Origin: Alphaproteobacteria bacterium
GTDB lineage: Bacteria; Pseudomonadota; Alphaproteobacteria; Rs-D84
Direction of reading: 5' to 3'
Assembly: GCA_017443235.1 (NCBI GenBank)
Contig: JAFSOV010000014.1
Coordinates: 1,867 to 65,866, forward strand
DNA length: 64,000 nucleotides
Part shown: one piece after another, positions 1,554-62,392 of the stretch
Position numbering within the stretch: the stretch's first letter is position 1
Layout of the letters: every line of letters begins with the position of its first letter
Made by a program: the position numbers and the translations under genes
The notes under the pieces: generated by a model
What the model was told of the DNA's origin: nothing
The model's database searches: none
The model's input: the letters and a program-made list of their open reading frames with translations, nothing else

Positions 1554-2129
1554 TTAGTTTATACTCCACAATAAACAATTTTCGTCCGTTTCTTCGGCGT
1601 TGTCCAGATAGCGCGTACAGGTCATTTTGTCTTGTTTTTCTGTCATTGCCGCCATAGTTGGAATATATTGGGATGCATCACGAGAAGAATTCATGGCGTC
1701 CGCAGAATTTACCGTTAGCAAATGGTCAAACGCGACCTGGTTATTGCTAGAAAATACCGGAATCCAGTGATAACTAGATGTAGCATCTGCAAGAGGGGTA
1801 TATTCAATTCCATTACTAAGATAAGTAAGTGCTTTAGTTAACATATCCATTGTTGGTAAATAATCTTTATAATATGCATAATTTGAATTTGCAGTTTGTG
1901 CCGCATAACGGGCATAGTTGGCATTATATAATCCTCGTTCGCCAACTGTGCCGGCATCACTGGTATATGCAACAACACTGCCCGAATTAACGGTTCCTGC
2001 GGGGATTTTTGATTGAAAATTTGTGTCAACATAACTTTGTGTCGTGATGGTTGACGTTGTTGTTTCCGCAAATGCGTTGATTGTTAAAACGGATGCAATT
2101 ACACCGATGCTAAGAATTGAAATCCTCAT
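1554..2129 (-). CDS. Secreted hypothetical protein with a tail-fibre-like YVD motif
   Basis: 191-aa ORF with signal peptide MRISILSIGVIASVLTINAFA/ETT. SYVDTNFQSKIPAG resembles the YVD..K motifs in the 58102 and 60470 proteins. No enzymatic motif seen. Confidence 0.6.
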   Translation of the reverse strand: MRISILSIGVIASVLTINAFAETTTSTITTQSYVDTNFQSKIPAGTVNSGSVVAYTSDAGTVGERGLYNANYARYAAQTANSNYAYYKDYLPTMDMLTKALTYLSNGIEYTPLADATSSYHWIPVFSSNNQVAFDHLLTVNSADAMNSSRDASQYIPTMAAMTEKQDKMTCTRYLDNAEETDENCLLWSIN

Positions 2130-2176
2130 ATTCCCTTCCTTTGTTATGCTTGTTTTTTATACATAAAATAGTGTAA

Positions 2177-2201
2177 CAAAAAGGTACCTTTTTTGTGACC
2201 A
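2177..2201. promoter_or_regulatory. Palindromic box 1, AAAAAGGTACCTTTTT followed by TGTGACCA; candidate operator
   Basis: Perfect 16-bp palindrome 48 nt upstream of the 1554..2129 start. A second copy lies about 86 nt away. Confidence 0.4.
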
Positions 2202-2261
2202 GGGGTCAGTTTTTGTAAGTGATTGATTTTACTGAATCGGAATTTCTAAAAAAAGTGGTGG

Positions 2262-2290
2262 ACAAAAAAGGTACGTTTTTTGTGACCACC
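2262..2290. promoter_or_regulatory. Palindromic box 2, AAAAAAGGTACGTTTTTT followed by TGTGACCA; candidate operator
   Basis: Near-identical direct copy of box 1 with one central mismatch. It lies between the rpsI terminator and the 1554..2129 gene. Confidence 0.4.
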
Positions 2291-2296
2291 CTGCGC

Positions 2297-11981: not shown

Positions 11982-12012
11982 AAAAAAACTGGGGCGTTCC
12001 GCCCCGGTTTTT
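11982..12012. terminator. Bidirectional terminator between lpxB and the 12011 gene
   Basis: Stem GGGGCG / CGCCCC with a 3-nt loop. A-run upstream and T-run downstream. Confidence 0.6.
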
Positions 12013-14698
12013 ATGGTAATATACCGTCGGGCAGATCCAGGAATTCATCCTGATGTGCGGACATATATGCTTCGCAATCATCTTGATGAGCAAACGGACA
12101 CACCTGATTAGTTGCGGAATTGACAGCCGAAGTGCACCAATCCTGAATCGTTGCATTTGCATTTCCTATCGTGTAACTGTTAATACACGCACCGTCATTC
12201 ACTGGGAATGTTTCACCACCTGGTTCTTCACGGGGTTGCACAGGTATGCCAGCCACACATTTCCCAAATAGGCCGTTTTTACTTCTGCGACCACCATTTT
12301 CCCAACATAGACAGGCGCCCCATGCATTGGTGTCTACATTTAATATGTACCCTTTTGGACACATGTTTTCGTGCCAATTACTGGCGGAATTTCCGTAATT
12401 GCTTTCAAGTTCTTGCCCCATATAGTAGTCTACGCTCTGCCAGCTTAAAGAACAGATAGGATTTAATTGAACTCCGTACAAGCGATGATCAATAAATTGT
12501 GGTTCGATAAATTTGCCTTGGACATTCATACATTGCGTCATAAGGCCGTCTATGATTTGATTATAAACCTCGGTCGCGACACCGGTTGGACGCAAACGGC
12601 GATTCTTGAATTTATAAGTTTTGTTGCCATTGGGGTCCCAATTGTTTATATCAATTGAACCATCGGCATCGCGCATTGCCCAACCGTACGCATTTATGTT
12701 ATCCCCGTCCGGTGCGGTGTATTCATATTGACCAAATGTGGGGGATGTGTCGCGGTGTGCAACAACCATATCTAACCCGCCAAATACTTCTTCGATTTGG
12801 TCGGCGCAACTGGATATATCGGCAACACGTTGCGCGCACAAAGATTTATACCCCGATTTTCGTATCCCGTTTTCATCGTATTCATACAGTGTGAACCAAT
12901 CCAATGCCGTTTTTTTATCGGCCGATTCGGGCGTGTCAACAACATTTGCCGTGAACAGGCCGCTGTTCGGGGCATAGAAGTTTTCGTAATTTGTGCCGCC
13001 GAAACTGTCAAAGCATTGTTGGGCAACCGCACGGCACGCCGCCAATGTATCGGTACCTGTTTGTGATTCGATATATGTGGCAATTACATCATCACCGAAC
13101 AGACCGTTACACGAATCGATATAATCACTGCACATTTGTTGCGTAAGGACGATTTTGTCCGGAATCAAAGATGTATCGGAATCGCCATCAATCAATGCCG
13201 CCATTGCCGCGGTTATTGCGGTTTCGCGTTCGGCATAGCACGCAGATATCAAATCAAAACAACCGTTTTGTATGGTTTTGACCTTGGATTGCTGGGCATA
13301 GTATATGTCTAATAAAGCCTTGTCCAAATATTCCGCCCACACCGCATCGGCGATTTCTGTACATTTGTCCAACGCGTCCGCCGCAAACTTTTTGGTTTTA
13401 TTTTCGAAATTTTTAAGGAACTTTTGATTGTACGGGTTTTGTGACAGTTTTTGATCAACCGCGTCTTTACCAAAGTCGAACTTTAACAATTTGCCCAATT
13501 CGTTAAAGTTCACCACGCCCGCGATTGGTGCGCCCGTTGTCACGTCTATGAATTCGCCATTATCCAGGCATTTATGATAATTTGCACCGCATACTTGCTC
13601 GCTAAGCACCGCGGATTCAACTTCGTTTATACATGTGGTCATATCGGATGAATTGTGTTTTTTGCGGTTTTCTATACGCGCCAAATCCAACATTGCATCA
13701 CCTTCGCGGATGGCGGTTTTTAATTCTTTCTTTTTGCCTTCTAGTGCGGTCTGAACCGTATTGCAATCTTGTTCAATTGCCATAAGGTACGCCGTCACCG
13801 CCCTTTGCAACGATGCATCATTACAATCAGATGCGACCACCGTCCGGCATGACGGATAAACCGCGTTATACAGTTCAATGCCGTTATATGATGCGACAAC
13901 CTGGGCCGTGTCATTCAGGCCGAACATATTTGTCGTATCAAACGACAGATTTATACTGTTCAAATCGGACCATTTGCCGCCAACGGTTGTGTCTTCACCG
14001 CGGATTGAATTCATAATTGCGGTCAATAAAGCCTTGGATGCGGAAACATCGCGCGTCAGTGCATTTTCGCCATCGGACGCGGTGTGAACGGCGGTTGCCT
14101 GGGCCGCGGTCATCCCAACCATATCAAGGTTTTCCGTAAATTCAGACAATTTTGCGTTCGTGTCGTCCAAACTTTTGCGCATATTGACCAATTCGCCGAT
14201 GCGCGAACTGCAAGAACACCGGCGATATTCGTCGTTCTTTAATGTGCAGAATTGGTCCATACATTGGAAATATGCGCTTTTGCATTGGTTGTATGCCGCG
14301 CCGGTGCGGGTTTCCGCCATATTTGTCGCGGTCGAATTTGCCGTTGCCGCGGCACGCGCAGTTACCGCCCCGCGTGCGGCGGTGGTGGATGCGGTTCGCG
14401 AATTGGTCGTTCCGGAACGGCCATTGATTACCGCCGTTCGTGTGCGTGTGGCGGTTTCGGTGCGTGGTGTGGTAATTGGTAATGTTCCCGCGCGTGTCGC
14501 AACCGTTTTCTGGGCACGGGTTTGTGTTGCGGCGCGCGATAAGTCCGCCGCGGTACGTGCGGTTGTGGCCCCCCGTGATTGGGTGGTTGATGTGGCGCGT
14601 GGCGCACCGGTCGATGACGCGGCATCACGCACCGCGGCATACGCGGGCGCGCCGGCCAAAAAGCCCAGAATTGCGCCAAAAAGCAGAATTTTCTTCAT
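12011..14698 (-). CDS. Large secreted Cys-rich protein; paralogue of 55692..58067
   Basis: Signal peptide MKKILLFGAILGFLAGAPAYA, then an Arg/Thr/Ala-rich tract of about 130 aa, then CKSAYFQCMDQFCTLKNDEYRRCSCSSR. About 500 aa can be aligned by eye with the 791-aa protein. Start set at MKKILLF. Confidence 0.8.
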   Translation of the reverse strand: MKKILLFGAILGFLAGAPAYAAVRDAASSTGAPRATSTTQSRGATTARTAADLSRAATQTRAQKTVATRAGTLPITTPRTETATRTRTAVINGRSGTTNSRTASTTAARGAVTARAAATANSTATNMAETRTGAAYNQCKSAYFQCMDQFCTLKNDEYRRCSCSSRIGELVNMRKSLDDTNAKLSEFTENLDMVGMTAAQATAVHTASDGENALTRDVSASKALLTAIMNSIRGEDTTVGGKWSDLNSINLSFDTTNMFGLNDTAQVVASYNGIELYNAVYPSCRTVVASDCNDASLQRAVTAYLMAIEQDCNTVQTALEGKKKELKTAIREGDAMLDLARIENRKKHNSSDMTTCINEVESAVLSEQVCGANYHKCLDNGEFIDVTTGAPIAGVVNFNELGKLLKFDFGKDAVDQKLSQNPYNQKFLKNFENKTKKFAADALDKCTEIADAVWAEYLDKALLDIYYAQQSKVKTIQNGCFDLISACYAERETAITAAMAALIDGDSDTSLIPDKIVLTQQMCSDYIDSCNGLFGDDVIATYIESQTGTDTLAACRAVAQQCFDSFGGTNYENFYAPNSGLFTANVVDTPESADKKTALDWFTLYEYDENGIRKSGYKSLCAQRVADISSCADQIEEVFGGLDMVVAHRDTSPTFGQYEYTAPDGDNINAYGWAMRDADGSIDINNWDPNGNKTYKFKNRRLRPTGVATEVYNQIIDGLMTQCMNVQGKFIEPQFIDHRLYGVQLNPICSLSWQSVDYYMGQELESNYGNSASNWHENMCPKGYILNVDTNAWGACLCWENGGRRSKNGLFGKCVAGIPVQPREEPGGETFPVNDGACINSYTIGNANATIQDWCTSAVNSATNQVCPFAHQDDCEAYMSAHQDEFLDLPDGILP

Positions 14699-14836
14699 CT
14701 CTGATAAAAATGTTAGCAAATTTTGTAAATCCGGGGCAAGCATATTTTTACATATTTACACAACAGATTTTTCATTGTTTTGGTATTTTCCCCTTGCAAA
14801 ATGTATGAATTTGATTTATTATTGGCGTTGCCTTGT

Positions 14837-15484: not shown

Positions 15485-16573
15485 ATGAGGGAGTTACGTT
15501 TTATATTTTATTTGTTGTGCGGATTTGCACCGTGTTTGGTGCGGGCGGATTTTTTGCCCGATTTTGTTGTGCCGTTTCCAGATGTGGCAAATACAGATTA
15601 CCAAATCACAAAGTTACGGCCTGTGGATTTTCCGGCAACGGTGGCGGATCTAAGTTTTACGGATCGTATGGCATTAAAATCTAAATCTTATGAACCATTT
15701 CGTGATATGCGCGCATATCATGATTTGGTGGTCGAAGGCGAAGAACATTTTATTGAACGGCAAATGGCGTTGATGGAAATGGAACGCGAATATGATTATG
15801 AAATGATGGACAATGCCGAATATTGCAATAATTATTCTTTGGACGAAGAACATTGTGCCCAGGCGCCGGATGCGTGGCAAGAAGTCATTGATGTGGCAGA
15901 TGATGTTTCATACGGCACAGAATATTATGGAACAACGATTGGTGGTGGTGCGGTGATTGCCAACAACAAAGTACGTGGCGGTTCGTGCTATCCGGCGGCA
16001 AAAAGTAATGATTTCAAAAATCAAATTCTTACCAGTGGAACGTATGAAAGGATTTCGCCCGCGTTTGAAAAGGCAATGATAACGGTGTTTCGTAAAGAAG
16101 GTACATGCGGGATAATTGAAGGTGATCCGTGTGGATATACGTGTTACGGCATTGGGCAAAATTGTCTTGGTAAAGATTTGGGAATCAATGTTCGTAATTT
16201 GACACGGCTCCAGGCAGAAAAAATCTATTATGATAATTTCTGGCAAAAATATAATGTTGGTATGTTGCCGGATGTTATTTCTGGGGATTTGTTTTTGGCA
16301 ATGATGGCCAGTGGTCCCAAAACCGGCATCAGTCAGTTTAGAAAGTTTTTAGGTTTGACGAATGGGTACCAGTTGGATGAAAATGTTGTTGCCGCGGTGC
16401 AAAATTATAATGGCGATATTCATCAATCTTGGTTGGATGTGCGTAAGCAATTCTTGGTACAGGTTGCCGCAAGAAAATATAACAATCGTGTGTTGAACGG
16501 ATGGATGCGCGCAATTAGGTTAAAGCGCGAAAATGGGTGCCACGTAATACCGGTGACCCCATTATACAGATAA
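15485..16573 (+). CDS. Secreted GH108-like muramidase-domain protein with a novel N-terminal region
   Basis: Signal peptide present. The C-terminal half resembles Glyco_hydro_108 plus PG_binding_3: VFRKEGTCG..GDPCGYTCYGI..LTRLQAEKIYYDNFW..GDLFLAMMASGPKTGISQFRKFLG...NGWMRAIRL. The N-terminal FPATVADLSFTDR module is shared with the 18883 protein. Confidence 0.72.
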   Translation: MRELRFIFYLLCGFAPCLVRADFLPDFVVPFPDVANTDYQITKLRPVDFPATVADLSFTDRMALKSKSYEPFRDMRAYHDLVVEGEEHFIERQMALMEMEREYDYEMMDNAEYCNNYSLDEEHCAQAPDAWQEVIDVADDVSYGTEYYGTTIGGGAVIANNKVRGGSCYPAAKSNDFKNQILTSGTYERISPAFEKAMITVFRKEGTCGIIEGDPCGYTCYGIGQNCLGKDLGINVRNLTRLQAEKIYYDNFWQKYNVGMLPDVISGDLFLAMMASGPKTGISQFRKFLGLTNGYQLDENVVAAVQNYNGDIHQSWLDVRKQFLVQVAARKYNNRVLNGWMRAIRLKRENGCHVIPVTPLYR

Positions 16574-16591: not shown

Positions 16592-16909
16592 TTATCGCAA
16601 ACCCAATGCGCGGCAACACGATGACGCGGCGGTTTTCCAATCAGAATATTGCTTTTCAGGATTGCGCAGGTCACGCCAACCCTGCCACCCGGAACACGTT
16701 TTCTTGGTGCCGGTACCGGTGCATTTTACATATCGGCGCAGCGAACAAGTTTGATTCGACAGTTTGCCCAAATCGGTCGTGCATTTAACAACCACATTTT
16801 GATTTTTCGCATCATCTTTGCCCAATTCCTTGGACGATATAACCTGGTACGCGTGGGCGGACACGACGGTTGATATTACAATTATAAAAGCGGTAAAAAA
16901 TTTTTTCAT
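16592..16909 (-). CDS. Small secreted Cys-containing protein, function unknown
   Basis: 105 aa with signal peptide MKKFFTAFIIVISTVVSAHA and six cysteines. Last gene of a co-directional run. Confidence 0.55.
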   Translation of the reverse strand: MKKFFTAFIIVISTVVSAHAYQVISSKELGKDDAKNQNVVVKCTTDLGKLSNQTCSLRRYVKCTGTGTKKTCSGWQGWRDLRNPEKQYSDWKTAASSCCRALGLR

Positions 16910-16983: not shown

Positions 16984-18879
16984 TCATTCGGCGGTTGACC
17001 ATGGTTCATCGTTCATCACCAACCAATACAGTTCTTCGCTGTCTGTGCCGGGATTGCGAATTATTGGGCGCACCACATAAATATCGACATCACACGCGTG
17101 GCGACCGGATTCATCCTGAACCTCGGTCAGGTCTTGATAAAACTTTTGTGCGAAATCCATTGCTTGCAGGTATGCGGTGTCATCATCGGCGGCATTGGTT
17201 GAATTGCCCGTCCACATAAGCCACATTCCGTAATTGACAACGTTATCTTGGCCTTCGATAGAATCCGCAGACAGCAACAACAGCGGACTCATTTTAATAC
17301 CGTTTGTGAATTCGTCTGTTTCGGTGTCCGCCCAATCATAGAATCCGCCGATAATCCCAATGACAAAGTTCAATGCCGCCAAATCTTCGCCAACACGTGC
17401 AACACGGCCAATATTGCGCATAGTGGAATGGAACAGCCAATCGCGCGCGCGACCGGATTTTGTGGCCTGGCGCGCAACTTTTTCGACCCGATTTAATGTC
17501 TTGGTGCCGGTGTTTGCGACCTTGATACTTTTGCCGATGTTTTTTGCGCCCTGCCAGGTGCGGGTTATAACGTTGCCGGTGCGTGCGTTTTTGAACGCCT
17601 TTAATTCCCGTGAATATTTTATCGCGTCTTTTAATGCGTCATATTCTTTGACATATTCGGCGACATTTTTATCGGCACGTGCCATTTCCGCCATTTCTTT
17701 TTGAATTTTGGCAATCTCGTCAGCGTTGACTTTTTTGAGATCGTCGATTTTATCAAGATCTTTTATATTTTTGAATTCATTGGCGCGGCCGAATTTCTTT
17801 GCGTCTTCCAAGTGCAATTTACGGGCGTTTTCCAATTGTTTTTCAATGCGTGCATATTTTTTTGTGCCCTTTTCCGCCCTGGCCAGATTTTCTTCCAATT
17901 TTGCCATGTTCCGGAAAGATTTTGCAAATTTTTCCGCGTTTTCTGTTGTTCGTGTGATTTTTTTCACTTTGTCTGCTTTTTCAATATATTTACCAACCTC
18001 AGGAATACGCCCCAAAACGCGCAGACTCTTTTTTATTGTTTTGCCCGCATGTGCGGCGCGGGCGCCTTTGGATACCCCAGATAGTGCGGCATAACCACCG
18101 TATGATACAACGGTCAATGCAATATCAACGACAACTTCGGCCACGGAAATCCATTTCAGGTTTCTGTCGCCCGCAATGTAATAATTATTATCATCGTCTT
18201 CCATTTGAACGGTACGATTGCGCAGAACATTGTGAACCATAGAATCGTTTATTTTGGCACCTATGCCCGTTTTGGTGGAACACCAACCATCGGCGTTATG
18301 CGGGTACAAATTGCCGATGTTTTCTTCAACCCATTTCATTGAAACAGTGTTATTTTTATCCGGCCCCACAAAGTCGCGTAATGCGCCCGATTGTGTCACC
18401 ATAACGCCATACCATGCCGGTTCAGTGTTGACCCATGTGGCGTGTTCATCGGTTGAACTGATGCCTGGATTCGGGTCGTTCGTTGGTAATTCGGTTTTTG
18501 TTGCCAACATAAAACGTTGTTCCAAAACCTTGACCTGGGTTTCATAGTTGATATCAATTGTTCGCCCGCCGGGAAAAGTATATTTTATCGGCATATAAAT
18601 TGTGTCGGTTTCATCGGCATCGGCAACCTCGGGACATGAAAGGACGGCACCAAGCGCCTCGGGCGATTGCAGGATATCGTAAATCCAATCGCGCACGACA
18701 TCACGGTCGTCATTCTCATTCATCAAGTATGCGTTTTCCGCCAACGCGTTATTAAATTCCATTGTCGCACATTCGGCATTCACGCGGTGCGACATATTTA
18801 ACAATTCCGCAGTGGTGTTTATATCCCCCGCCGCAAACGCAGAGAGAGGGAACAGCAGAAAGAGTAATAATTGATACAT
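16984..18879 (-). CDS. Secreted or membrane-associated protein with a Lys-rich coiled-coil core, function unknown
   Basis: 631 aa with signal peptide MYQLLLFLLFPLSAFA. The central segment of about 200 aa is Lys/Glu/Ala-rich and flanked by hydrophobic stretches. Its start lies 3 nt after the upstream gene's stop. Confidence 0.75.
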   Translation of the reverse strand: MYQLLLFLLFPLSAFAAGDINTTAELLNMSHRVNAECATMEFNNALAENAYLMNENDDRDVVRDWIYDILQSPEALGAVLSCPEVADADETDTIYMPIKYTFPGGRTIDINYETQVKVLEQRFMLATKTELPTNDPNPGISSTDEHATWVNTEPAWYGVMVTQSGALRDFVGPDKNNTVSMKWVEENIGNLYPHNADGWCSTKTGIGAKINDSMVHNVLRNRTVQMEDDDNNYYIAGDRNLKWISVAEVVVDIALTVVSYGGYAALSGVSKGARAAHAGKTIKKSLRVLGRIPEVGKYIEKADKVKKITRTTENAEKFAKSFRNMAKLEENLARAEKGTKKYARIEKQLENARKLHLEDAKKFGRANEFKNIKDLDKIDDLKKVNADEIAKIQKEMAEMARADKNVAEYVKEYDALKDAIKYSRELKAFKNARTGNVITRTWQGAKNIGKSIKVANTGTKTLNRVEKVARQATKSGRARDWLFHSTMRNIGRVARVGEDLAALNFVIGIIGGFYDWADTETDEFTNGIKMSPLLLLSADSIEGQDNVVNYGMWLMWTGNSTNAADDDTAYLQAMDFAQKFYQDLTEVQDESGRHACDVDIYVVRPIIRNPGTDSEELYWLVMNDEPWSTAE

Positions 18880-18882: not shown

Positions 18883-20589
18883 TTAATAAGTTTCTATTGT
18901 GCCGGGCGTGCAACTTGTGTTGTCTGATGCGTCGCCCCCAATGCAAATTGCTTTATAAGGCTTCAAATCGCCATCGCCCTTGTAACCGGATGAAGGTAAT
19001 TTGTCTATGAATAACCACCAATCTCGTCCGTGTGAAGAATCGCACTCGCTTGATATATTGGATATATTATCTGTAATTGCTTTAATAAATTTTTCCACAT
19101 CCGCTTTACTCAATTCCAACCTTTCCGGCCAACCACTTGATCGGTCACTTGCAAGTAATTCGCCACCATTTGAATAACCATACAGTATATCACTGCGAAC
19201 CTGTTCTTTGAACAGTCGATTTATTATCCCCATATTTGGATAAGAATATGAACCAATGCAATTATCTATGCCGTTTTTATTCGTTCGGCACATTTTAGAC
19301 CATTTACTAAGTGCGGAATTGCCGTCTTTATGTATCAATCGTACTGCCGCAGTATTTTTTGCCAAACAATACCACACAACAAAACGTTCTTCATCATCAT
19401 CACAGTAGTTAGCGATATTTTTACCGTTATCGCATACGCATTTGCCGGATTCTTCATGAGTGTTTGGAACCACCGTGCATGCGCAATTTGCGTCCATATA
19501 CGTTGGGTCAGTACAAGCATTTGTGTTTGGACCAGGACCGATTCCGCCACCATTGTATCCACCATTCTTGCCACCGCCTGACGTGCCGGGCCGGACGCAT
19601 TTATTATCACGCAATTCATATCCGGTGTTGCATGTGCATTTGGCGTAAAATGTTTTATCGTCACGGTCGTTCGGCGAAATTGTATGCGTGGTTGCGCAAT
19701 TGGTTTTTGCGGCATCTGTGCACCATGCCGTACATTTGCCGTTTGTAAGTGTCGGCGTGCATGACACGGTTGCACCACGACCGGTTGAATATTTTGTCGG
19801 GCAACCGCTGTCATTGGTGCCGGCACCGATGTAATGTATGTCGTGTTCCAGTACCGATTTCATACGTTCGTAATATTCATCTTCGGTTTCAAATTTTGGC
19901 GTTTTATATGCGTTCAAATTTTTATATGGTTCGTATCCCGCAGTCGTGTTTGCCAATCGGTCGGTAAATGATAAATCATCAACCGTTTTTGGAAAGTTTG
20001 CCGCCGTCACTGTTGCCGTGGGCGTTGTTACGTTTTGCAAACCTTCTAATTCCGCGGTGCGTTCCGCAACCAATTTTTCATAATCGGTTTTTGTTTGGGC
20101 AAATGGGTTGCCTATTTGAATTGTTGGTTGAGTTTGCTGAACCGGTTTCACAAGATTATTCGTGGACGAATTGCCGTATGTTTTTTTATAATCTTCAAAT
20201 ATAGAATCAATATATCCGCCACAAGATGTTGCAAAATTATGCCCCGGTAATTGTGACAATTGCACCATAACAACCGGTCGCACGTCTGATATACGCGAAT
20301 TTGAACAATAATTACGATTCGCACAATATTCGGTCACCAAATTTTGAACGATTCGGTTGCAATCGCCGGTGGTTAAATCTGCACCGGTTGCATAAATTGG
20401 GGTTGGAAAGCGTTGGTTGTACGGACTGTTGGGTGTCCAAAAAGGATTAGATGAATATTTGTTCACAGATTGAATTTCGCCGTATTTAGACATAACCGTT
20501 GGCGCGTTCTGGGCCGCGCGGGCGTTGCAAATACACGCGCCGCATAGAACCGCGAACGAAGTGGCAAAAAAACGATTATGTTTAATCAA
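18883..20589 (-). CDS. Secreted Cys-rich protein with an EGF-like segment and a Gly-rich spacer, function unknown
   Basis: 568 aa with a signal peptide. Contains CTCNTGYELRDNKCV and further Cys spacings, a GGGKNGGYNGGGIGPGP spacer, and an FPKTVDDLSFTDR module. Confidence 0.8.
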   Translation of the reverse strand: MIKHNRFFATSFAVLCGACICNARAAQNAPTVMSKYGEIQSVNKYSSNPFWTPNSPYNQRFPTPIYATGADLTTGDCNRIVQNLVTEYCANRNYCSNSRISDVRPVVMVQLSQLPGHNFATSCGGYIDSIFEDYKKTYGNSSTNNLVKPVQQTQPTIQIGNPFAQTKTDYEKLVAERTAELEGLQNVTTPTATVTAANFPKTVDDLSFTDRLANTTAGYEPYKNLNAYKTPKFETEDEYYERMKSVLEHDIHYIGAGTNDSGCPTKYSTGRGATVSCTPTLTNGKCTAWCTDAAKTNCATTHTISPNDRDDKTFYAKCTCNTGYELRDNKCVRPGTSGGGKNGGYNGGGIGPGPNTNACTDPTYMDANCACTVVPNTHEESGKCVCDNGKNIANYCDDDEERFVVWYCLAKNTAAVRLIHKDGNSALSKWSKMCRTNKNGIDNCIGSYSYPNMGIINRLFKEQVRSDILYGYSNGGELLASDRSSGWPERLELSKADVEKFIKAITDNISNISSECDSSHGRDWWLFIDKLPSSGYKGDGDLKPYKAICIGGDASDNTSCTPGTIETY

Positions 20590-21094: not shown

Positions 21095-21170
21095 TATTTC
21101 CCCCTTGCGTTTCGAATCGGTTTTATGATACACTTATCATATCATATAAAGTGAATAAGGTTTATAGAAA

Positions 21171-24755: not shown

Positions 24756-24757
24756 TG

Positions 24758-25177: not shown

Positions 25178-25187
25178 AACCGATTTA

Positions 25188-46399: not shown

Positions 46400-47077
46400 A
46401 TGAACAAAAACCAGAAAATATTTATACTTGCGGCGTTGATGGGTTTGGCGGGTGCATGTAAAAAAGACCCGATTCCGGAACCGAATCCGGCCCCAACACC
46501 GAATGTGCCGACCGACACCATTGTGCCACCAACGCCCGGTGATACAATCACACCCGTGGTGCCCGGCGATACAATTGTTCCAAATCCACCAACGCCGGGT
46601 GATACGATACAGCCTGGAAATTATGATACTATTCCTGGGCGTAAGGTAGAATTTTTGTTAGTGAAACCAGGCAATTCTGGGATACGTTATCCGACCAGAG
46701 ATACTATATTGTTTTATGCCAATCATCCAGGTTGTGATAGTATAGTACTTAAATGGAAAGTTGGCGCTGGTTATACAACAGGTTGGACACCGGATGCCTT
46801 TCATTCGCCACGCGACAGTTTGAGGAAGCGCTTTATAAGCCCAAAAGTTTTTGGAAAAGGCAGAATTAACGTTAATCAAAATTATGGTGGCGCCAGTATA
46901 CCATGTGCGGATTCGTTAGATATATCTAAATTAGGAATGACCGTGTGTGATAGCGCGATTTTTGCAGATTGGGGGTATGAACCTTATCGTGATCCATATT
47001 CGAAATCACGCGAAGAGCATATTAAGTTTATTGACACGGTTGGAATGTCGCGTGCAATATTGGGTCGAACCCGGTAA
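46400..47077 (+). CDS. Putative lipoprotein with a Pro-rich PGDTI-repeat linker, function unknown
   Basis: 225 aa with a signal peptide and lipobox-like LAGAC. PGDTI occurs three times in a Pro-rich linker, followed by a globular C-terminal domain. Starts 15 nt after the giant gene's stop. Confidence 0.75.
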   Translation: MNKNQKIFILAALMGLAGACKKDPIPEPNPAPTPNVPTDTIVPPTPGDTITPVVPGDTIVPNPPTPGDTIQPGNYDTIPGRKVEFLLVKPGNSGIRYPTRDTILFYANHPGCDSIVLKWKVGAGYTTGWTPDAFHSPRDSLRKRFISPKVFGKGRINVNQNYGGASIPCADSLDISKLGMTVCDSAIFADWGYEPYRDPYSKSREEHIKFIDTVGMSRAILGRTR

Positions 47078-54547: not shown

Positions 54548-55039
54548 ATGAAAAAACTGTTAGTTGGTTTAATGGGGATGTTTGCGGCGGGAAAATCTTT
54601 CGCAAACCCGGCCTGTGCGGTGTGCACGATTGCCATTGGTGCAACATTATCTATATCCAGAAAACTTGGGGTTTGTGATAATGCGGTTGCAATTTGGGTT
54701 GGCGCATTTTTGGTTTTGATGGGTTATTGGCTTATCAAATGGTTTGATAGGAAAAATTGGCATTTCTGGGGTCGCGATATCATTTTAATATTATTGTCTT
54801 TTTCAATGATTGCGGGGCTGTATATCAAGCATTTAACATATAATCAGTGTTATTGGATAATTGATGCGTTTTTGTTCTGGGCCATGGTTGGTGGGGCGAT
54901 TTATATTCTGTCGCAAAAGTTATATGAATTTATGAAACGTCGCAACAATAATCATGCACATTTTCCATTCGAGAAGGTTGTCTTGGCCTTGGTTATGTTA
55001 TTTATTGCCAGTTTTATTGTTGCCAAATTGGCCGCATAA
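54548..55039 (+). CDS. Small polytopic membrane protein, function unknown
   Basis: 163 aa with about 4 hydrophobic spans and an N-terminal CAVC motif. Confidence 0.6.
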   Translation: MKKLLVGLMGMFAAGKSFANPACAVCTIAIGATLSISRKLGVCDNAVAIWVGAFLVLMGYWLIKWFDRKNWHFWGRDIILILLSFSMIAGLYIKHLTYNQCYWIIDAFLFWAMVGGAIYILSQKLYEFMKRRNNNHAHFPFEKVVLALVMLFIASFIVAKLAA

Positions 55040-55691: not shown

Positions 55692-58067
55692 GTGTTAAGG
55701 ACGAAAGAGATTTTTTCTTGGTTTTGTGCCTTTTTGGCAACGGTTTTTGTCGGTGTGTCCTATGCGGTCCAGGCGCCCAATCCGCGTGCGGTCGAATCGG
55801 AATCTGCACCGCGTCAGGTCAAGACCGATACCCAGTCGCGTCGTGCGACCGCGTCACCGACACGTATCCGCATAATTGGGCCGACGCGCGTAAATGCCAA
55901 TGGTGGGCGCAGTGCGACAACATTGACCGCCGTAAGGGTTGATGCCACGAATGCGCGTGCAAATTCTTCTACGCGCAGTGCGGTGCCGGCCGCGCGCGCG
56001 CGCAGTACCAAGTCCGGCACAACAAATGCGCGTGCGGGTGCAAAAGTTGCATCGGGCCCCAAAGGCGTGGCGCGCAGTGCGACCGCCCGTGCCACCGCGG
56101 TATATAATGATGTTAGCAAGATTGGTGGCGGATATGCCGAATGTCGCGAATCGTATGCAACGTGTATGGATCAAATGTGTGCAAACGCCAATGAAACATA
56201 TCGCCGGTGTTTTTGCAGTGACCGTTTCACAAAATTCCGTGATATAGAAAATTCTTTGGACCAGGCAATGATTCTGTTGCAACAATTCCAAGACAATAAC
56301 TTGAACGTGGTTGATAAAACCGCGGCCGAGGTCGAGGCGATGTATTCCCCGACCGTGGGTGAATTGGCAATTAAAAAAGACACCAGTGCCGCCGCCAAGG
56401 CGTTGGATGCAATCAATGATTTGTTGTCGGGGAAATCGTCTTCATCATATTCGTCTTCATCGGGTTCTTTGGGAATATTGGACTTGGATTTCACCACAGA
56501 TTTTGATGATATTTGGTCAAACGATGTTGGTTCCATATTTTCGTCCAGTGGTACAGATATGTCCACGTTGGAAGGCACGGCATTGTTTAACGCGGCACAA
56601 AATCAATGCGTGCGTTTAACCCAAAATAATTGCAGCAGTGACGCCATGTTTTCTATGTCGCGCAGTTCGTATAATATTTTGATAACCCAAGATTGCAATA
56701 TATATGAAAAGAATTTGAACAAGAAACGCGAAACCGTGGCCCAGGCCGTTCGTACGGCCGAAAAATACTTGCGCGAGGCACGTTTGGAAGAATATCGTTC
56801 GCATAATTCTGCGGACGTGAACGAATGTATTGCCAAGGTTCGTGATGCAATTTTGGCGGACACCGCGTGCGGTGCGAACTATAAACGTTGTTTGGACCCG
56901 ACCGGGGCATATATCAATGGTGCAACGGGTGAACCGATTTACAGTCCGCGGTTGTTCAAATTGGACGAAACAATCACGTTAAGCGGGGATGTTAGTGGCG
57001 ATGTGTTGCAACAAAACCCCAGTTATGATAAATATTTAGAAAATTATCGTAAATATGTGACGCGCGAATTGGATACATGTCGTGATATTGCGGATTTTGT
57101 TTGGACAGAATTCAAACGGAATGCGATTATCGAAATTGCCCAATCGCAAAGTGCAAAAATAGAAGAAGTGAAATCGTCCTGCGTTGATACGATGGCGGAA
57201 TGTTATGACACCCAAACAAACGCATTAAAGAATTTTGATAAAAACACGGCGACGACGGCCGCGGCGTTGGGTCGATATACCGCGCGCGATATGTGTCGTG
57301 AAAAGGTGGCAACCTGTGCCGCATTGTACGGTGGTGAAAATTGCCAATTTGACAGTCGGGGTAAATTAACAAATGCGGGTGCGTGCGGATTGACATCTTT
57401 GTTAAGTTATGTTGAAACCGTGGATTCTTTGAATGTTGTTGAAAAGTGTGAAACCGCCCTGCAAGAATATGTGACAAAACTGTGTACGCCCGATAATACC
57501 ACATATTCATATCCGTATAATTGTCGCAGTATGACATTCAGCGGCAGTGGCACCACCAATTTACGCGAAACGTTGGAAAATTTTGCGTTGCAGAATTGTC
57601 GTGACCCATTAAAAACAGGCGAAATAACAACCTATACCGAATTGGGTAACCAAATGCCCCAGATACGGGTACAGATTGATTCTTTGATTGCCGGGGTTCG
57701 TGACGCGTTAAGTTCATCTTTGGCCGAGGTTTGTAATGATTTGGGCGGTATGTGGGCACCACAGGTCGAACCCGGGGCTCAAGCTCAATATTTACAGTCT
57801 TTCTATAACACCGCATTTGGTGGGTATTTGCCCGACAATACGTCTGGGCGGCCCGCGGGTAAAGAGTATGGCCTTTGTTATGAAAACAGCGCGTATCTTG
57901 CGTGCCAAGAATACGAAAGATTGGGCGAAGAAAAAGATAAAAAATTCGCAGAATGGAACGAGGCAACCCAGACATGTGTGCTGTATGATGGATGGTATGA
58001 ATATAAATGCGCCGAATTGGGGACGGGATATTATATGGAAGGTGTATGTTACATCGTCGCAAATTGA
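55692..58067 (+). CDS. Large secreted Cys-rich protein; paralogue of 12011..14698
   Basis: GTG start after AAGGGAG. Signal peptide, an Arg/Thr/Ala-rich tract, then CRESYATCMDQMCANANETYRRCFCSDR. Conserved later blocks include ACGANYKRCLDP, QNPSYDKYLENY and DTCRDIADFVW. Confidence 0.82.
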   Translation: MLRTKEIFSWFCAFLATVFVGVSYAVQAPNPRAVESESAPRQVKTDTQSRRATASPTRIRIIGPTRVNANGGRSATTLTAVRVDATNARANSSTRSAVPAARARSTKSGTTNARAGAKVASGPKGVARSATARATAVYNDVSKIGGGYAECRESYATCMDQMCANANETYRRCFCSDRFTKFRDIENSLDQAMILLQQFQDNNLNVVDKTAAEVEAMYSPTVGELAIKKDTSAAAKALDAINDLLSGKSSSSYSSSSGSLGILDLDFTTDFDDIWSNDVGSIFSSSGTDMSTLEGTALFNAAQNQCVRLTQNNCSSDAMFSMSRSSYNILITQDCNIYEKNLNKKRETVAQAVRTAEKYLREARLEEYRSHNSADVNECIAKVRDAILADTACGANYKRCLDPTGAYINGATGEPIYSPRLFKLDETITLSGDVSGDVLQQNPSYDKYLENYRKYVTRELDTCRDIADFVWTEFKRNAIIEIAQSQSAKIEEVKSSCVDTMAECYDTQTNALKNFDKNTATTAAALGRYTARDMCREKVATCAALYGGENCQFDSRGKLTNAGACGLTSLLSYVETVDSLNVVEKCETALQEYVTKLCTPDNTTYSYPYNCRSMTFSGSGTTNLRETLENFALQNCRDPLKTGEITTYTELGNQMPQIRVQIDSLIAGVRDALSSSLAEVCNDLGGMWAPQVEPGAQAQYLQSFYNTAFGGYLPDNTSGRPAGKEYGLCYENSAYLACQEYERLGEEKDKKFAEWNEATQTCVLYDGWYEYKCAELGTGYYMEGVCYIVAN

Positions 58068-58101: not shown

Positions 58102-59118
58102 ATGTTAAAAAACAAAATAATGGTAAGCGTGATTGCTGTGGCGGCTGGTTTTGGCCCCGCGTTTGGTGCGGCCAGTCTTAGAACCGGTGATCGCGCAGGC
58201 AGCCTTAGGGTGACACCCGCGGTGACAACGGTCAAGACGGGTGGGACGGGTACGGCAACGACCACGACGAATACCGCGACATCGCTGTCGGGTGGGCGTA
58301 TGGCGACTTTGCCGGGGCCAACCAACATCAGCACTAAACCCAAACTGCCATCGTCGGCATCGGCGGCATCGGTTGCGGATTTGAAAAATAAACTGGACCA
58401 ATTGGCCCAAGAAATCAGTGATTTGGCGAATGCCGGCGTTGACGAAGGTGCGGTTCGGGATATTATAGATTCTGAATTGGCCGGCAAAAATTATGCGACC
58501 GTCCCGTATGTTGATACGGCCGATAGCGCAAAATTAGACACGGATGAATTTGCCAATAAATTCGATACACGTGTGACGGAAAAACAGCTGGTTGATGAAA
58601 CCGCGTTGGCGGCCCATGCATATACCAAGCCCGAGGTTGATGGTATTGTTGCGGCGATAAAACCGTCTGCGGCGATAAGATATGATGAATCAACCGGGGA
58701 TTTGCAATATCAAGATTCCAATGATTCATGGACAACGTTTGCGAATAAGAGCGATTTCGCAGGCACGGATGGTAAAAACATCGAATTACAAAAAACGGAC
58801 AATGCTATTCAATGGCGTGTCAAGGGTTCAGGGGAAAATTGGCAGGATTTGGTTTCTTTGGACGAAATTACCGGTGCCACGGGCACGACCGGTGCGGATG
58901 CGTGTGAACCTAAATATTCGTCGGCAATCACCGCGGATGGCGATACGCGTGTCACGATAACCTGTGTGAATGATGATACCAAGGTTTTGGGTCAATACAC
59001 AGTGTCCAAGGGCGCGGATGGCGCAATCCCATGTCCGGGCGGCATAGAATTAGAACAAGATACGGCGTATTCTGGGGCGGATGGTGCCACCAAGTACGAT
59101 CTTGTCTGCAAGGAATAA
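58102..59118 (+). CDS. Secreted fibre-like protein with phage-tail-fibre-type motifs
   Basis: 338 aa with signal peptide and an Arg/Thr-rich tract. Contains a coiled-coil, YVDTADSAKLD, and the GTDGKNIELQKTDNAIQWRVKGSGENWQDLVSLDEITGATG motif. A Cys module follows, and the protein ends KYDLVCKE. Confidence 0.8.
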   Translation: MLKNKIMVSVIAVAAGFGPAFGAASLRTGDRAGSLRVTPAVTTVKTGGTGTATTTTNTATSLSGGRMATLPGPTNISTKPKLPSSASAASVADLKNKLDQLAQEISDLANAGVDEGAVRDIIDSELAGKNYATVPYVDTADSAKLDTDEFANKFDTRVTEKQLVDETALAAHAYTKPEVDGIVAAIKPSAAIRYDESTGDLQYQDSNDSWTTFANKSDFAGTDGKNIELQKTDNAIQWRVKGSGENWQDLVSLDEITGATGTTGADACEPKYSSAITADGDTRVTITCVNDDTKVLGQYTVSKGADGAIPCPGGIELEQDTAYSGADGATKYDLVCKE

Positions 59119-59162
59119 AAACAAATAAACAAACAATAATTTAGGAACAAAAGGAAGCAAAA

Positions 59163-60434
59163 ATGAAAACAAATAAAATAATCTTTTCTGGAATCTGTGC
59201 AACGGTTGCAATGTTGATTGGTGCAAATGCGCATGCAGATCGTGTCATCGGCAGCATCGTTGTGGAACGTGGTCCCCAGGGTGTGCCGGGTGTGGGTATT
59301 ACATATCGCGGTGAAGTCGCAGATTGTAACGAGTTGGCCGGCCTGACCGGTATGGTCCAAGGTGATGCATACTATAACCGTGAAGAAGGTTTGTTATATA
59401 TCTATAATGGTACATCGTTCCCGACATGCCCGGGCGGTGGTGTTCCGTTCAAGGGTGAACAGGGTGAACAAGGACCCCAAGGTGAACAAGGACCGGCCGG
59501 TCAAACATGCGCGATTACCGCAGAAACCGCCACTACAACCGTTGATGGCAAAGATGCGGTTAGAACGACCATGAAAAACAGTTGTACAAATGAAACAATT
59601 GGTTCGTTCACGGTGGCAAACGGTGCCGATGCCGAGGACCCATGTGTACCAACATTTACAACGGCGCACAATGCGGCAACACATAAAACGACCGCACAAT
59701 ATACATGTGGTTCAACCAGTCAATCATTTGAAATCCCGGATGGCGTTGGTGTTTGCGATGATGTTGCAAATGCGGCAACGGCGGTAAAAACATATACCAA
59801 GACATATACCGCGCCAACGGCGACCGCGGCGGGTTATGTGGCGTTACAACAAACGATGTGCGACGGTGGCACCAATACCACCAATTACCAGGATACGTGT
59901 ACGCCGATTATTTCATCCAACAAAGATATTTGCAGTGGCAACGGCGGGACATATATGGAATGCACACGCCAAGATACCGGTGCGGCGTATAATATCTGCA
60001 AGGCAATAACCACAGAAAACGCCAGTGCAATTTCTACGGCAATCAGCACTGCACAAACCGCGGCGGAAAATGCGGCCACTGCGGCAAGTGCGGCACAATC
60101 AACGGCGGACAATGCCCAATCAACCGCAAACACAACCGCGAACAAGGTTGATAATGAAAACACCGGGTTGGTGGCAACATACAGCTTGGCATCCCAGGCG
60201 AACACTGGTCTGGCCAACAAGTTGTCCAAAAACGTCACGTTCGCCGAAGAAACGGTCGATGGGGTGCTCTCATATGTATTAAAAGAAGGCAACACCACGG
60301 TCGCGGTTTTGGCCGCCAAAGAAGACCTGAAAGGTGACCCGGGTGACACGCCGTGCAGTGATATTCAGGTTGTAAAAAATACTTCTGCAAGTACAGAAGA
60401 GGCAGCGCAATATGATGTAATCTGTGTCGAGTAA
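59163..60434 (+). CDS. Secreted collagen-like / tail-fibre-like protein
   Basis: 423 aa with signal peptide, then ADRVIGSIVVERGPQGVPG and GDAYYNREEGLLYIYNGTSF. G-X-Y run GEQGEQGPQGEQGPAG, a Cys module, an Ala/Ser/Thr-rich stalk, ending QYDVICVE. Confidence 0.82.
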   Translation: MKTNKIIFSGICATVAMLIGANAHADRVIGSIVVERGPQGVPGVGITYRGEVADCNELAGLTGMVQGDAYYNREEGLLYIYNGTSFPTCPGGGVPFKGEQGEQGPQGEQGPAGQTCAITAETATTTVDGKDAVRTTMKNSCTNETIGSFTVANGADAEDPCVPTFTTAHNAATHKTTAQYTCGSTSQSFEIPDGVGVCDDVANAATAVKTYTKTYTAPTATAAGYVALQQTMCDGGTNTTNYQDTCTPIISSNKDICSGNGGTYMECTRQDTGAAYNICKAITTENASAISTAISTAQTAAENAATAASAAQSTADNAQSTANTTANKVDNENTGLVATYSLASQANTGLANKLSKNVTFAEETVDGVLSYVLKEGNTTVAVLAAKEDLKGDPGDTPCSDIQVVKNTSASTEEAAQYDVICVE

Positions 60435-60469
60435 GGAAAGGATTGTGAAATAAATAAAAAGGAAGTCAA

Positions 60470-62392
60470 ATGTACAAAAAAATGACTTTTTGGGGCGTGT
60501 GTATGGCGCTGGCCATGGTGGTCGGTGCGCCGGCGGTCGCGGCAGATAGGGTTATTGGTAATATTATTGTGCCAATCCCATCGAACGGGACCAACGGTGC
60601 GGCGGGTGCCGATGGTGCGTCTGCATACCAGATTTGGTTAAATGCCGGCAACACCGGAACCGAGGCCGATTTCTTGGCATCATTGGTCGGTGCCCCCGGA
60701 ACAAATGGCGTTGATGGTGCGCCCGGTGCGGCGTGTGAATCAACCATTACATCGGTTGTTTGCGGACCGAACGAGACTGTAAAATGTGCGGTTCAAAGCA
60801 AGTCCGGTGTTCGTATAGCCAAGACGGATTGCAACAACGAGAATCCAACGTACGATTATGTGTATGATGGTGCGGATGGTGATGATGGTGTTGGTGTGTG
60901 TGATGGAATATCGTCTGCCAATATGAATAAAACCGTCAAGAACACAACCAGTGTTTATACGGCGGCAACGTCTTCGGCGGCCGGTTATGTGACGAATACT
61001 CGCACTATGTGTGACCTAACAACCGTCACAACCGATACGGTGCAGGACACATGCACACAAATCGTAGATACCCGTACCAGTGGCGCGTGTGACGGGGCAT
61101 ATATGATGTGCACGAATCAGACTAACAATGCAACATATTATGTTTGCAAGGCGGTGACCGGAACAAATGTTAGTTCCATAAGTTCGGCAATCAGTTCGGC
61201 ACAAACCGCGGCGGATAATGCCCAATCAACCGCAAATAACAAGGTTGACACGGCAACATTCACATCGTACCAGGCCACGGTTGCATCGACCTATGCAAAT
61301 AAAGATGATGTTTATAACAAAACGCAGGTTGATAACGCAATAAGTACTGCAACAAGCGGTCTGGCAAGCGAAACCTATGTTGATAACGCGGTTGCGAACA
61401 AGCAGGATACTTTGAGTTCTGCACAGTTGGCGGCGGTGAACAGTGGTATTACGTCAAACAATATTACAACGTATGACGGATATGCAACCACCATTGCAAA
61501 CAAGGCCGATGCGTCGGCGTTGACCACCGCAAATGGCAAAATTACCGCATTGGAAACAACGGTTGGTGATGCGTCCAGTGGTCTGGTGCAACAGGTGAAT
61601 ACTAACACCAGCGCGATTGGTGATGCGTCCAGTGGTTTGATCAAAGATGTTGCCGATGCCAAGACGGATGCGTCAAGTGCGCTAAGTACTGCAAATACGG
61701 CGTCCGCCAACGCAACCCAGGCCAAACAAGACGCGGCAGATGCCAAAACAGATGCGGCAAGCGCATTGTCCGGACTTTCGTCCAAACTGGATGCGTCCAC
61801 GGCGGCCAGTACGTATCTTAGCCAGACAAATGCAGCTTCAACATATTTGACGCAGACGAGCGCCGCAAACACCTATGCAACGCAAACGGATTTGTCGAGC
61901 GTTGACGCCACGGCGAGACAGGCGGCAAGTGATGCGTCCGATGCGGTTAGTACAGCGAATACTGCGTCAACGAATGCGTCCAGCGCGTTGACGGCGACAC
62001 AGACATTGAATACGACCGTTTATGGTGCCGCCGATGGAACCGAAACCAGAGACGGATTGACGACAATTGTAGGTAAAACTGCGTCTACCGGTTTGCGCGG
62101 TACCGTCGCAACCAATGCCTCAAACATCAGTTCGTTGAACACGACTGTGTCTGAGCATACGTCAAGTATCAGTTCGTTGGACACGACTGTGTCTGGGCAT
62201 ACGACCAGTATTTCTTCGTTGCAATCACGGGCCAGCAGTCTTGAAACCACCGTTAATGGAACGTGTACTGGACGTGGCAGTTCCGGTTCGGAAGAGTCCG
62301 GCGGTAATACCGGTGGAAGCGGAACGTGTACACAAAGTCTGGAAGATCGTATCGCGGCAATCGAGGCCAGATTGACAGCCGGTGGACTATAA
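60470..62392 (+). CDS. Secreted fibre-like protein with a long Ala/Ser/Thr-rich repetitive stalk
   Basis: 640 aa with signal peptide, then ADRVIGNIIVP. The NGAAGADGASAYQIWLNAGNTGTEADFLASLVGAPGTNGVDGAPG motif is common in tail-fibre proteins. Its Cys module is paralogous to that of the 59163 protein. Repeats include DASSGL and TTVSxHTxSISSL. Confidence 0.82.
   Translation: MYKKMTFWGVCMALAMVVGAPAVAADRVIGNIIVPIPSNGTNGAAGADGASAYQIWLNAGNTGTEADFLASLVGAPGTNGVDGAPGAACESTITSVVCGPNETVKCAVQSKSGVRIAKTDCNNENPTYDYVYDGADGDDGVGVCDGISSANMNKTVKNTTSVYTAATSSAAGYVTNTRTMCDLTTVTTDTVQDTCTQIVDTRTSGACDGAYMMCTNQTNNATYYVCKAVTGTNVSSISSAISSAQTAADNAQSTANNKVDTATFTSYQATVASTYANKDDVYNKTQVDNAISTATSGLASETYVDNAVANKQDTLSSAQLAAVNSGITSNNITTYDGYATTIANKADASALTTANGKITALETTVGDASSGLVQQVNTNTSAIGDASSGLIKDVADAKTDASSALSTANTASANATQAKQDAADAKTDAASALSGLSSKLDASTAASTYLSQTNAASTYLTQTSAANTYATQTDLSSVDATARQAASDASDAVSTANTASTNASSALTATQTLNTTVYGAADGTETRDGLTTIVGKTASTGLRGTVATNASNISSLNTTVSEHTSSISSLDTTVSGHTTSISSLQSRASSLETTVNGTCTGRGSSGSEESGGNTGGSGTCTQSLEDRIAAIEARLTAGGL

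Follow-up and report, generated by a model that had tools for sequence, protein, structure and literature searches.

Do the many exported proteins encoded among the core genes of a reduced alphaproteobacterial genome build one surface structure, or do they belong to several unrelated families? The question is raised by a 64-kb window (the whole stretch of DNA analysed, on contig JAFSOV010000014.1 of assembly GCA_017443235.1) that encodes 15 signal-peptide proteins. The source organism is an alphaproteobacterium of the gut or rumen, of the Candidatus Enterousia type (order Rs-D84) and with a genome of ~1 Mb. A reading made without database searches (the sequence-only reading) had linked the 15 proteins by a network of shared modules and suggested one underlying surface-structure system. 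Family memberships, copy numbers, distributions, synteny and the selection regime were determined, and the observation of shared modules was partly confirmed. The window is probably a dense sample of a very large, lineage-specific exported proteome with at least six unrelated groups, not one system. The ages of the exported families range from order-wide to essentially species-specific.

Shared modules among the fifteen exported proteins

The proteins are named by the start coordinate of their open reading frames (ORFs); aa denotes amino acids.

1554..2129 (− strand): p1554, secreted protein of the 'YVD' family
12011..14743 (− strand): p12011, CMDQxC-family protein with signal peptide, basic R/T/A/S-rich tract, Cys-stapled helical domain and Cys-rich C-terminus
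15485..16573 (+ strand): p15485, signal peptide, DLSFTDR module (aa 48-103) and GH108-type N-acetylmuramidase domain (aa ~193-344)
16592..16909 (− strand): p16592, small secreted protein with six cysteines, last gene of its string
16984..18879 (− strand): p16984, signal peptide, internal hydrophobic segment and Lys-rich, coiled-coil-like middle
18883..20589 (− strand): p18883, secreted protein with 27 cysteines; its conserved N-half ends in a DLSFTDR module (aa 198-253)
24462..24755 (+ strand): p24462, His-rich singleton of 97 aa with signal peptide and hydrophobic C-terminus
25188..27320 (− strand): p25188, Cys-rich N-domain, coiled-coil middle, Gly-rich hydrophobic segment and OmpA-C peptidoglycan-binding domain
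31161..32066 (− strand): p31161, conserved secreted singleton upstream of a response-regulator and histidine-kinase pair
36504..46385 (+ strand): p36504, giant adhesin-like protein of 3,293 aa with Listeria-Bacteroides (Flg_new) repeats (aa ~1-2080) and Cys-rich repeats in the C-terminal third
46400..47077 (+ strand): p46400, lipoprotein (LAGAC lipobox) with a PGDTI Pro-rich linker
55692..58067 (+ strand): p55692, CMDQxC-family protein, positional orthologue in about 60 species
58102..59118 (+ strand): p58102, T/G/A-rich fibre-like protein; its C-terminal Cys-bracketed module of ~50 aa resembles that of p59163
59163..60434 (+ strand): p59163, collagen-like (G-X-Y) fibre protein with Cys-bracketed modules
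60470..62392 (+ strand): p60470, phage-tail-fibre N-module (aa 53-100), collagen-like triplets, one YVD-x5-KQD motif and an Ala/Ser/Thr-rich repetitive stalk

All 15 ORFs were present, each with a signal-peptide-like n-h-c start and an AXA-type cleavage site, which in p46400 is replaced by the lipobox. Their summed length of 9,585 aa (45.0% of 64 kb) agrees with the earlier estimate of ~9,570 aa and ~45%. By a crude estimate, signal-peptide proteins make up ~28% of the total genome length and 48% of the window's contig; the trait is therefore genome-wide, and the window lies towards its upper extreme. The great majority of the proteins are uncharacterised, as the sequence-only reading had held. 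Only three of the 15 pass a Pfam cut-off (p15485 for GH108, p25188 for OmpA, p36504 for Flg_new), and an NCBIfam search returned nothing above its cut-offs. Matches to well-characterised families, which that reading had named as a refutation, thus did not emerge for the set. Their description as phage-like applies to some of them: PHROGs matches were found to an endolysin for p15485 and to tail or tail-fibre proteins for p58102, p59163 and p60470, besides phage tblastn matches and the endolysin-like GH108 domain. The label eukaryote-like does not hold, its only basis being EGF-type matches at E 0.03, which are not significant. These were disregarded together with other sub-threshold Pfam matches (HdeA, BORCS7, DUF5717, DUF4756, Trypan_PARP). 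Dense cysteines had been ascribed to most of the proteins; a Cys content of at least 2.8% occurs in six of the 15, versus 1.35% in non-secreted proteins. The number of cysteines after residue 25 is even in 13 of the 15.

BLASTP among the 15 proteins gave four significant links. Two had been recognised before: the CMDQxC domain of p12011 and p55692 (E 1e-60 over 542 aa) and the DLSFTDR module of p15485 and p18883 (E 3e-11), a third copy of which heads an M23 peptidase on contig 13. The other two had been missed and connect p18883 with p36504 by a Cys-rich repeat module (E 3e-6) and p59163 with p60470 (E 2e-13; hhalign probability 99.6%, E 1e-24). A further missed link, of moderate strength, joins the C-terminal ~50 aa of p58102 and p59163 (hhalign probability 65%, P 6e-5). 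The YVD motif had been assigned to p1554, p58102 and p60470. A hidden Markov model (HMM) of the motif, built from 23 N-termini of the family, recovered p60470 at E 2.7e-5, and the hhalign comparison of the family with p60470 was weak (P 0.012); p58102 was rejected as a member (motif HMM E 0.19, hhalign P 0.34). The Arg/Thr/Ala-rich tract reported for p12011, p55692 and p58102 is a hallmark of the CMDQxC family in the first two. In p58102 it was rejected as such: with rank 11 of 180 signal-peptide proteins, 4% Arg and a net charge of +3, the resemblance is loosely compositional. A relationship of CMDQxC to any other group was likewise rejected (hhalign P 0.24-0.88). Apart from the weak YVD-p60470 and p58102-p59163 links, CMDQxC, YVD and the fibre trio p58102/p59163/p60470 were unrelated in the hhalign comparison.

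When the 239 signal-peptide-like proteins of the genome were grouped by iterated profile search (jackhmmer), three big clusters emerged, which together take up 9.3% of the genome. The YVD cluster has 33 members (8,171 aa) and holds p1554; a module-chained cluster of 15 members (12,056 aa) holds p15485, p18883, p36504 and the contig-13 M23 peptidase; the CMDQxC cluster of 13 members (10,416 aa) holds p12011 and p55692. Smaller clusters are a trio with p25188, a pair with p46400 and the pair p59163/p60470. For p16592, p16984, p24462, p31161 and p58102, no partner was found among the 239 proteins. Within the window, p25188 (OmpA-C), p46400, p16592, p16984, p24462 and p31161 have no link to the other proteins. 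The all-against-all profile comparison proposed in the sequence-only reading thus upheld some modules, but it resolved separate components and five singletons.

The distributions are discordant as well. Four phyletic ranges were observed: CMDQxC is order-wide, p16984 family-wide, the fibre trio is limited to the three closest species and YVD essentially to this one. A complete congeneric genome (G350; 958,618 bp) has positional orthologues of six proteins: p12011 (50% identity), p16592 (68%), p16984 (39%), p18883 (42%, N-half only, the conserved part being aa 30-251), p31161 (78%) and p55692 (44%). Most annotated core neighbours are 55-90% identical. The other nine are missing or replaced in the congener: p1554, p15485, p24462, p25188, p46400, p58102, p59163, p60470 and p36504 (all but its last 111 aa). 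Here p24462 and p46400 have no match, p15485 is absent and p25188 is not at the syntenic site. Within the window, the genes are indeed not grouped on one island, as had been stated; nine of the 15 nevertheless occupy slots that are empty or differently filled in the congener. Interspersed core genes include tig, leuS, an M23 peptidase, lpxA, lpxB, argS, a histidine kinase with its response regulator, ruvB, tolR, secA, dnaE, rsmH and iPGM. The window also encodes GcrA and a type IV prepilin peptidase, and Rfam detected RNase P RNA and five tRNAs, nothing else. Because formal clustering gives separate components and the distributions disagree, a single system is unsupported.

The order-wide CMDQxC family

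CMDQxC is a conserved, functional and order-defining family without a known fold, whose positional orthologues are under purifying selection. The proteins consist of a Sec signal, a basic low-complexity Arg/Thr/Ala/Ser tract of 100-150 aa, a domain of ~450 aa and a variable Cys-rich tail. Eight aligned paralogous domains share 14 invariant cysteines, including the start C-x6-CMDQxC-x9-C-x-CS. The tract is distinctive: the top seven of the 180 signal-peptide proteins ranked for it all belong to the family, with an R+T+A+S fraction of 0.58-0.72 and a net charge of +3 to +13. The true start of p12011 is likely an internal MKKILLF at about position 14698.

This genome has 11-13 copies. Of 81 genomes sampled across the order, 78 encode CMDQxC proteins (16 of 18 genera). 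Members of the window's taxonomic family carry 12-19 copies in a genome of ~0.9 Mb, and members of the order's other families 1-10. No copy was found in 298 further alphaproteobacterial genomes, which cover 252 genera. Among 1.84 billion representative proteins CMDQxC forms 983 clusters, and its database relatives are all annotated as 'hypothetical', none with a Pfam domain. An AlphaFold2 model of p55692 (aa 140-791, 45 sequences) reached medium confidence, with a predicted local distance difference test score (pLDDT) of 72.8 and a predicted template modelling score (pTM) of 0.46. It consists nearly completely of long helices, with a small alpha/beta part at the C-terminus. Fold searches with this model found no match in PDB (best E 0.4) or BFVD (best E 0.9).

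The genomic position of both window copies is stable. p12011 keeps its place after lpxB in the complete congener. p55692 is part of a gene string, rsmH-x163-x191-p55692-[variable slot]-HTH-iPGM, that is kept in about 60 species; x191 is a 191-aa protein, HTH a helix-turn-helix gene, and x163 the following feature.

54548..55039 (+ strand): x163, small multi-pass membrane protein of 163 aa with a near-invariant CxxC, between rsmH and p55692

The CxxC is present in 43 of 44 aligned x163 homologues. With dS near saturation, the ratio of nonsynonymous to synonymous substitution rates (dN/dS) of the p55692 helical domain is about 0.10, equal to that of rsmH; values for the fibres are 0.15-0.26. The tract and the C-terminus of p55692 evolve faster than the helical domain. 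The longest rsmH ORF (53427-54500, 357 aa) extends ~75 aa beyond its orthologues of 282-284 aa; translation probably begins near 53655, in overlap with the dnaE end.

Fibre-like genes, the wall-hydrolase module and the remaining exported proteins

The YVD family has a conserved signal peptide and N-terminus (T-x-x-YVD-x5-KQ-x-KI), a hypervariable middle and a conserved C-terminal C-x13-C-LLW loop. The proteins are ~170-340 aa long, with a conserved N-region of ~45 aa and a motif of ~25 aa. jackhmmer found 30-33 paralogues in the own genome, and six-frame searches 40-43 matches. Many YVD genes lie at contig ends or run off them (C2, C3, C6, C7, C8, C12, C13, C14, C16), so that the family evidently fragments the assembly, and its copy number is probably underestimated. 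p1554 has no match in Pfam, PHROGs or NCBIfam. The 80 other genomes of the order have 0-2 weak matches each at E 1e-5. At E 1e-8, none was found in 25 relatives; the complete congener has none, nor have viral contigs. A database of 5.8 billion proteins holds 31 relatives only, so the family is essentially confined to this species.

The region upstream of p1554 contains a short cassette.

2178..2280: two palindromic sites (ACAAAAAAGGTACCTTTTTTGT-like) with a spacing of 87 bp, enclosing a segment of ~65 bp

Its arms of 19 nt are 95% complementary and 65 nt apart. The genome has 18 such site pairs (85-87 bp), nearly all upstream of YVD-family genes. In at least nine of the paralogous copies the inner segment is oriented as in the window; four others carry its exact reverse complement. 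From this comparison of paralogues, the cassette is a candidate invertible promoter that would act as an on/off switch for YVD genes. The genome encodes six serine recombinases (three of them 207-230 aa) and five tyrosine recombinases, all outside the window, as candidate drivers of such inversions. The recombinase genes, unusually many for a ~1-Mb genome, are located on contigs C4, C7, C10, C13, C18, C6 and C14. Phase variation by invertible promoters is established for fimS of E. coli and for the Mpi-controlled promoters of Bacteroides fragilis. These promoters and the YVD cassettes are alike in being short repeat-flanked segments directly upstream of genes for surface proteins (predicted ones in the case of YVD) and in the presence of site-specific recombinases. 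Both orientations also occur, for the YVD cassettes among paralogous copies. The YVD cassette differs by its very small size (~65 bp of enclosed segment, sites spaced by 85-87 bp) and by sites that are palindromes themselves.

The fibre trio lies in a hypervariable slot between p55692 and the conserved HTH gene and iPGM. Across species, 0.5-5.3 kb separate the p55692 end from iPGM, and the slot usually contains one unrelated signal-peptide protein of 276-476 aa; the trio fills it only in the three closest species (L003-L005). PHROGs matches (p58102, tail protein, E 1.7e-6; p59163, tail fibre, E 1e-8; p60470, tail, E 9e-14) are limited to the N-terminal modules. The segment aa 53-100 of p60470 matches annotated tail-fibre proteins in 24 phage records, and phage tblastn covers 5-8% of this protein. 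p59163 matches viral contigs through its collagen-like triplets only. Neither p59163 nor p60470 has a sequence match in PDB.

p15485, p18883 and p36504 are connected by modules. The GH108 domain of p15485 (PF05838) scored 39 bits against a cut-off of 21.2, with a PHROGs endolysin match at E 6e-17 and PDB relatives 7dnp and 2ikb. The protein carries 'FRKEG...GDP' with the catalytic Glu in the E-G motif and is a predicted muramidase. The DLSFTDR module follows the signal peptide in p15485 and in the contig-13 M23 peptidase, and ends the conserved N-half in p18883, whose variable Cys-rich C-half has a module in common with p36504. Flg_new (PF09479) was found in several stretches of p36504 (62.4 bits, cut-off 27, E 4.4e-17), with eleven core motifs by regular expression; the genome encodes five paralogues. 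The 82 nt upstream of p36504 (36422-36503) are 84% identical to the region upstream of the paralogue at C7:82899, which suggests a shared 5' leader or promoter. RNase P RNA (36032-36370, − strand, 188 bits) fills most of the 615-nt gap before p36504.

p18883, p16984 and p16592 follow a prepilin peptidase on the same strand.

20615..21133 (− strand): type IV prepilin (leader) peptidase, encoded immediately 5' of p18883 (Pfam Peptidase_A24, E 1.3e-10, above cut-off)

This string is kept in the congener and adjoins GcrA (21171-21764). p16984 is probably a membrane-anchored envelope protein. Of 32 genomes sampled from the taxonomic family, 31 encode it; none of 29 from other families of the order does. 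p16592 has no paralogue in the genome.

The OmpA-C domain of p25188 (PF00691, aa 589-677) scored 36 bits against a cut-off of 27.2, and the protein has two paralogues. The p25188 gene lies just beyond a 64-nt direct duplication (24966-25029 and 25119-25182, 95% identical, 153 nt apart) that begins inside the 3' end of tRNA-Pro and looks like an att-like integration scar at a tRNA hotspot. p36504, p15485 and p25188 reach the cut-offs of their Pfam families, but unlike standard proteins of these families they are fused to lineage-specific Cys-rich repeats, to the DLSFTDR module, and to a Cys-rich N-domain with a coiled coil, respectively. p31161 has no family match in Pfam, PHROGs or NCBIfam and none in PDB. 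The single paralogue of p46400 is encoded behind a CMDQxC gene on contig 9. A heptad-like unit (AGTGGTTAGTGGATAGTG...) forms arrays at the 3' ends of genes at 11900-11929, 24753-24782 and 35895-35924, and blastn found dozens of related intergenic copies of the unit across the genome.

Competing explanations and the biology of the lineage

One integrated apparatus, with the 15 proteins as its parts and the modules used for mutual docking, could draw on the DLSFTDR module crossing architectures (muramidase, M23 peptidase, Cys-rich protein), on the Cys-rich module of p18883 and p36504, on the frequent location of CMDQxC genes beside other large Cys-rich secreted genes, and on the prepilin peptidase heading the 18883-16984-16592 string. 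The separate profile components with their five singletons, four phyletic ranges from order to single species, and the loss or replacement of nine of the 15 in a congener that keeps the others make such an apparatus very unlikely. Even less credible is that the fibre-like genes (the 1554 family, 58102, 59163 and 60470) encode the fibres of a phage or of a domesticated podovirus-like particle. The PHROGs tail and tail-fibre and phage tblastn matches point that way, but the similarity is limited to a ~45-aa module and collagen-like triplets, YVD relatives are missing from viral contigs and no other phage genes are adjacent. All these proteins have cleavable Sec signal peptides, and phage particles assemble in the cytoplasm.

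Divergent housekeeping deserves more weight, although it is still unlikely. p12011, p55692, p16592, p16984, p31161 and p25188 would then be periplasmic or envelope-biogenesis proteins that have no role towards a partner and look novel through divergence. Strong purifying selection fits this view, as does the positional orthology beside such core genes as lpxB, rsmH and those of the two-component pair. Outer-membrane export signals could not be recognised, and the OmpA-C domain and internal membrane segments point to the envelope. The 12-19 CMDQxC paralogues of ~850 aa are hard to explain in this way under extreme genome reduction, as are the variable Cys-rich C-termini and the fast divergence (39-50% identity, where most annotated core neighbours retain 55-90%). 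Housekeeping also leaves the fibre genes, the giant adhesin and the YVD family unexplained.

In the preferred explanation, an exported proteome of several unrelated groups, the CMDQxC proteins p12011 and p55692, members of an old, order-confined family, may be structural proteins of the envelope or surface, tethered by the basic tract and presenting a variable end. The trio and the YVD proteins would be surface fibres that bind a partner, YVD expression being switched on and off by DNA inversion. p15485, p18883 and p36504 may combine adhesion and wall hydrolysis; DLSFTDR would then be a shared module for docking or targeting. p25188 would be an envelope protein anchored by OmpA-C. The prepilin peptidase, p18883, p16984 and p16592 form a conserved operon, and p24462, p31161 and p46400 are singletons. 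Export could proceed by Sec, then oxidation by a DsbA-like protein, and then possibly by a secretin and prepilin-peptidase machinery; a secretin is encoded on contig 2 (C2:33985-34485). The Dsb machinery, which the sequence-only reading had wanted checked, was found in part. A membrane-anchored DsbA-type protein with a CPYC site is encoded at C1:9258-10142 (PF01323 above cut-off). DsbB (PF02600) and VKOR (PF07884) gave no match in the 94%-complete genome. Because of its CxxC, its conserved place upstream of p55692 and the absence of DsbB and VKOR, x163 is a candidate membrane thiol-oxidoreductase partner.

Several observations weigh against parts of this explanation. The missing DsbB and VKOR are one of them, and apart from OmpA-C no outer-membrane translocation or anchoring domain is recognisable in the 15 proteins. 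The medium-confidence p55692 model, which matches no known structure, gives no help for the proposed CMDQxC role. The AlphaFold2 monomer model of p1554 (33 sequences) has a pLDDT of 59 and is unusable, leaving a trimeric fibre architecture hypothetical. For the cassette, opposite states are known from paralogues, not from reads at one locus; one independent assembly has the window's locus in the same orientation and another ends 13 nt upstream of the gene. The genome-wide signal-peptide counts come from a home-made heuristic.

Expanded surface families are found in other reduced-genome Alphaproteobacteria, namely msp2/p44 in Anaplasma, OMP-1 in Ehrlichia and sca in Rickettsia. They are beta-barrel or autotransporter proteins of the outer membrane, some of them varied by gene conversion. 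The window's families resemble them in that much of a small genome is given over to paralogous exported proteins whose ends are conserved and whose centres vary. Homology was not found, and CMDQxC proteins are all-helical and disulfide-stapled, have a basic disordered leader and are stable positional orthologues. The MAT fibres of Bdellovibrio bacteriovorus comprise 21 copies of ~1,000 aa with a beta-rich N-domain of ~130 aa and S74 or other tips (PMC10769870). As described there, they share with the YVD proteins and the trio a multi-copy nature, signal peptides, a likeness to phage tail fibres (in the trio limited to N-terminal modules), a conserved N-terminal region and variable distal parts. 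The 21 MAT copies compare with 30-40 YVD copies plus the collagen-like trio, and both hosts rely on other cells. YVD proteins are set apart, by description only, by a length of ~170-340 aa, the ~25-aa YVD motif and a C-terminal disulfide loop. YVD genes have candidate invertible promoters; the MAT passages of PMC10769870 mention none.

The source metagenome-assembled genome (MAG) has 984,916 bp in 18 contigs, is 94% complete and encodes 42 tRNAs; a 16S rRNA gene was not found in it. A four-sequence alignment query recovered relatives of the p55692 locus in 'Candidatus Enterousia sp.' MAGs and in rumen and gut 'Alphaproteobacteria bacterium' MAGs, the closest orthologue being that of RUG585 (87% identity). 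Rs-D84 genomes are <1 Mb, without respiration and standard transporters, with an incomplete glycolysis and lacking biosynthesis, and partner dependence was proposed for the group on these metabolic gaps (PMC12306168). The cell-associated lifestyle suggested by the sequence-only reading is reasonable and already in the literature (PMC12306168). Investment of reduced-genome, partner-dependent bacteria in variable surface repertoires is a known phenomenon, of which the window is an instance; it includes one well-conserved, truly uncharacterised family, CMDQxC, and one candidate phase-variable fibre family. A more far-reaching idea, speculative and rather improbable, is that Enterousia is an epibiotic parasite or predator of gut microbes, in which phase-variable YVD and collagen-like fibres would serve as interchangeable receptor binders comparable to MAT fibres, DLSFTDR-tagged GH108 and M23 enzymes would breach the wall of the partner and CMDQxC proteins, with a new disulfide-stapled helical fold and a basic tether, would form a lineage-defining surface coat or attachment organelle. 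If true, the animal gut would harbour an alphaproteobacterial equivalent of what Patescibacteria or Bdellovibrio do.

The misleading idea of a single hidden surface machine is removed. Rs-D84/Enterousia bacteria are widespread in rumen and gut metagenomes, were never cultured and are thought to live off other cells. CMDQxC proteins, YVD genes, the variable cargo slot and the module shared with wall hydrolases are the obvious candidates for partner recognition and attachment. The exported families may provide handles for enrichment, labelling and the prediction of host partners.

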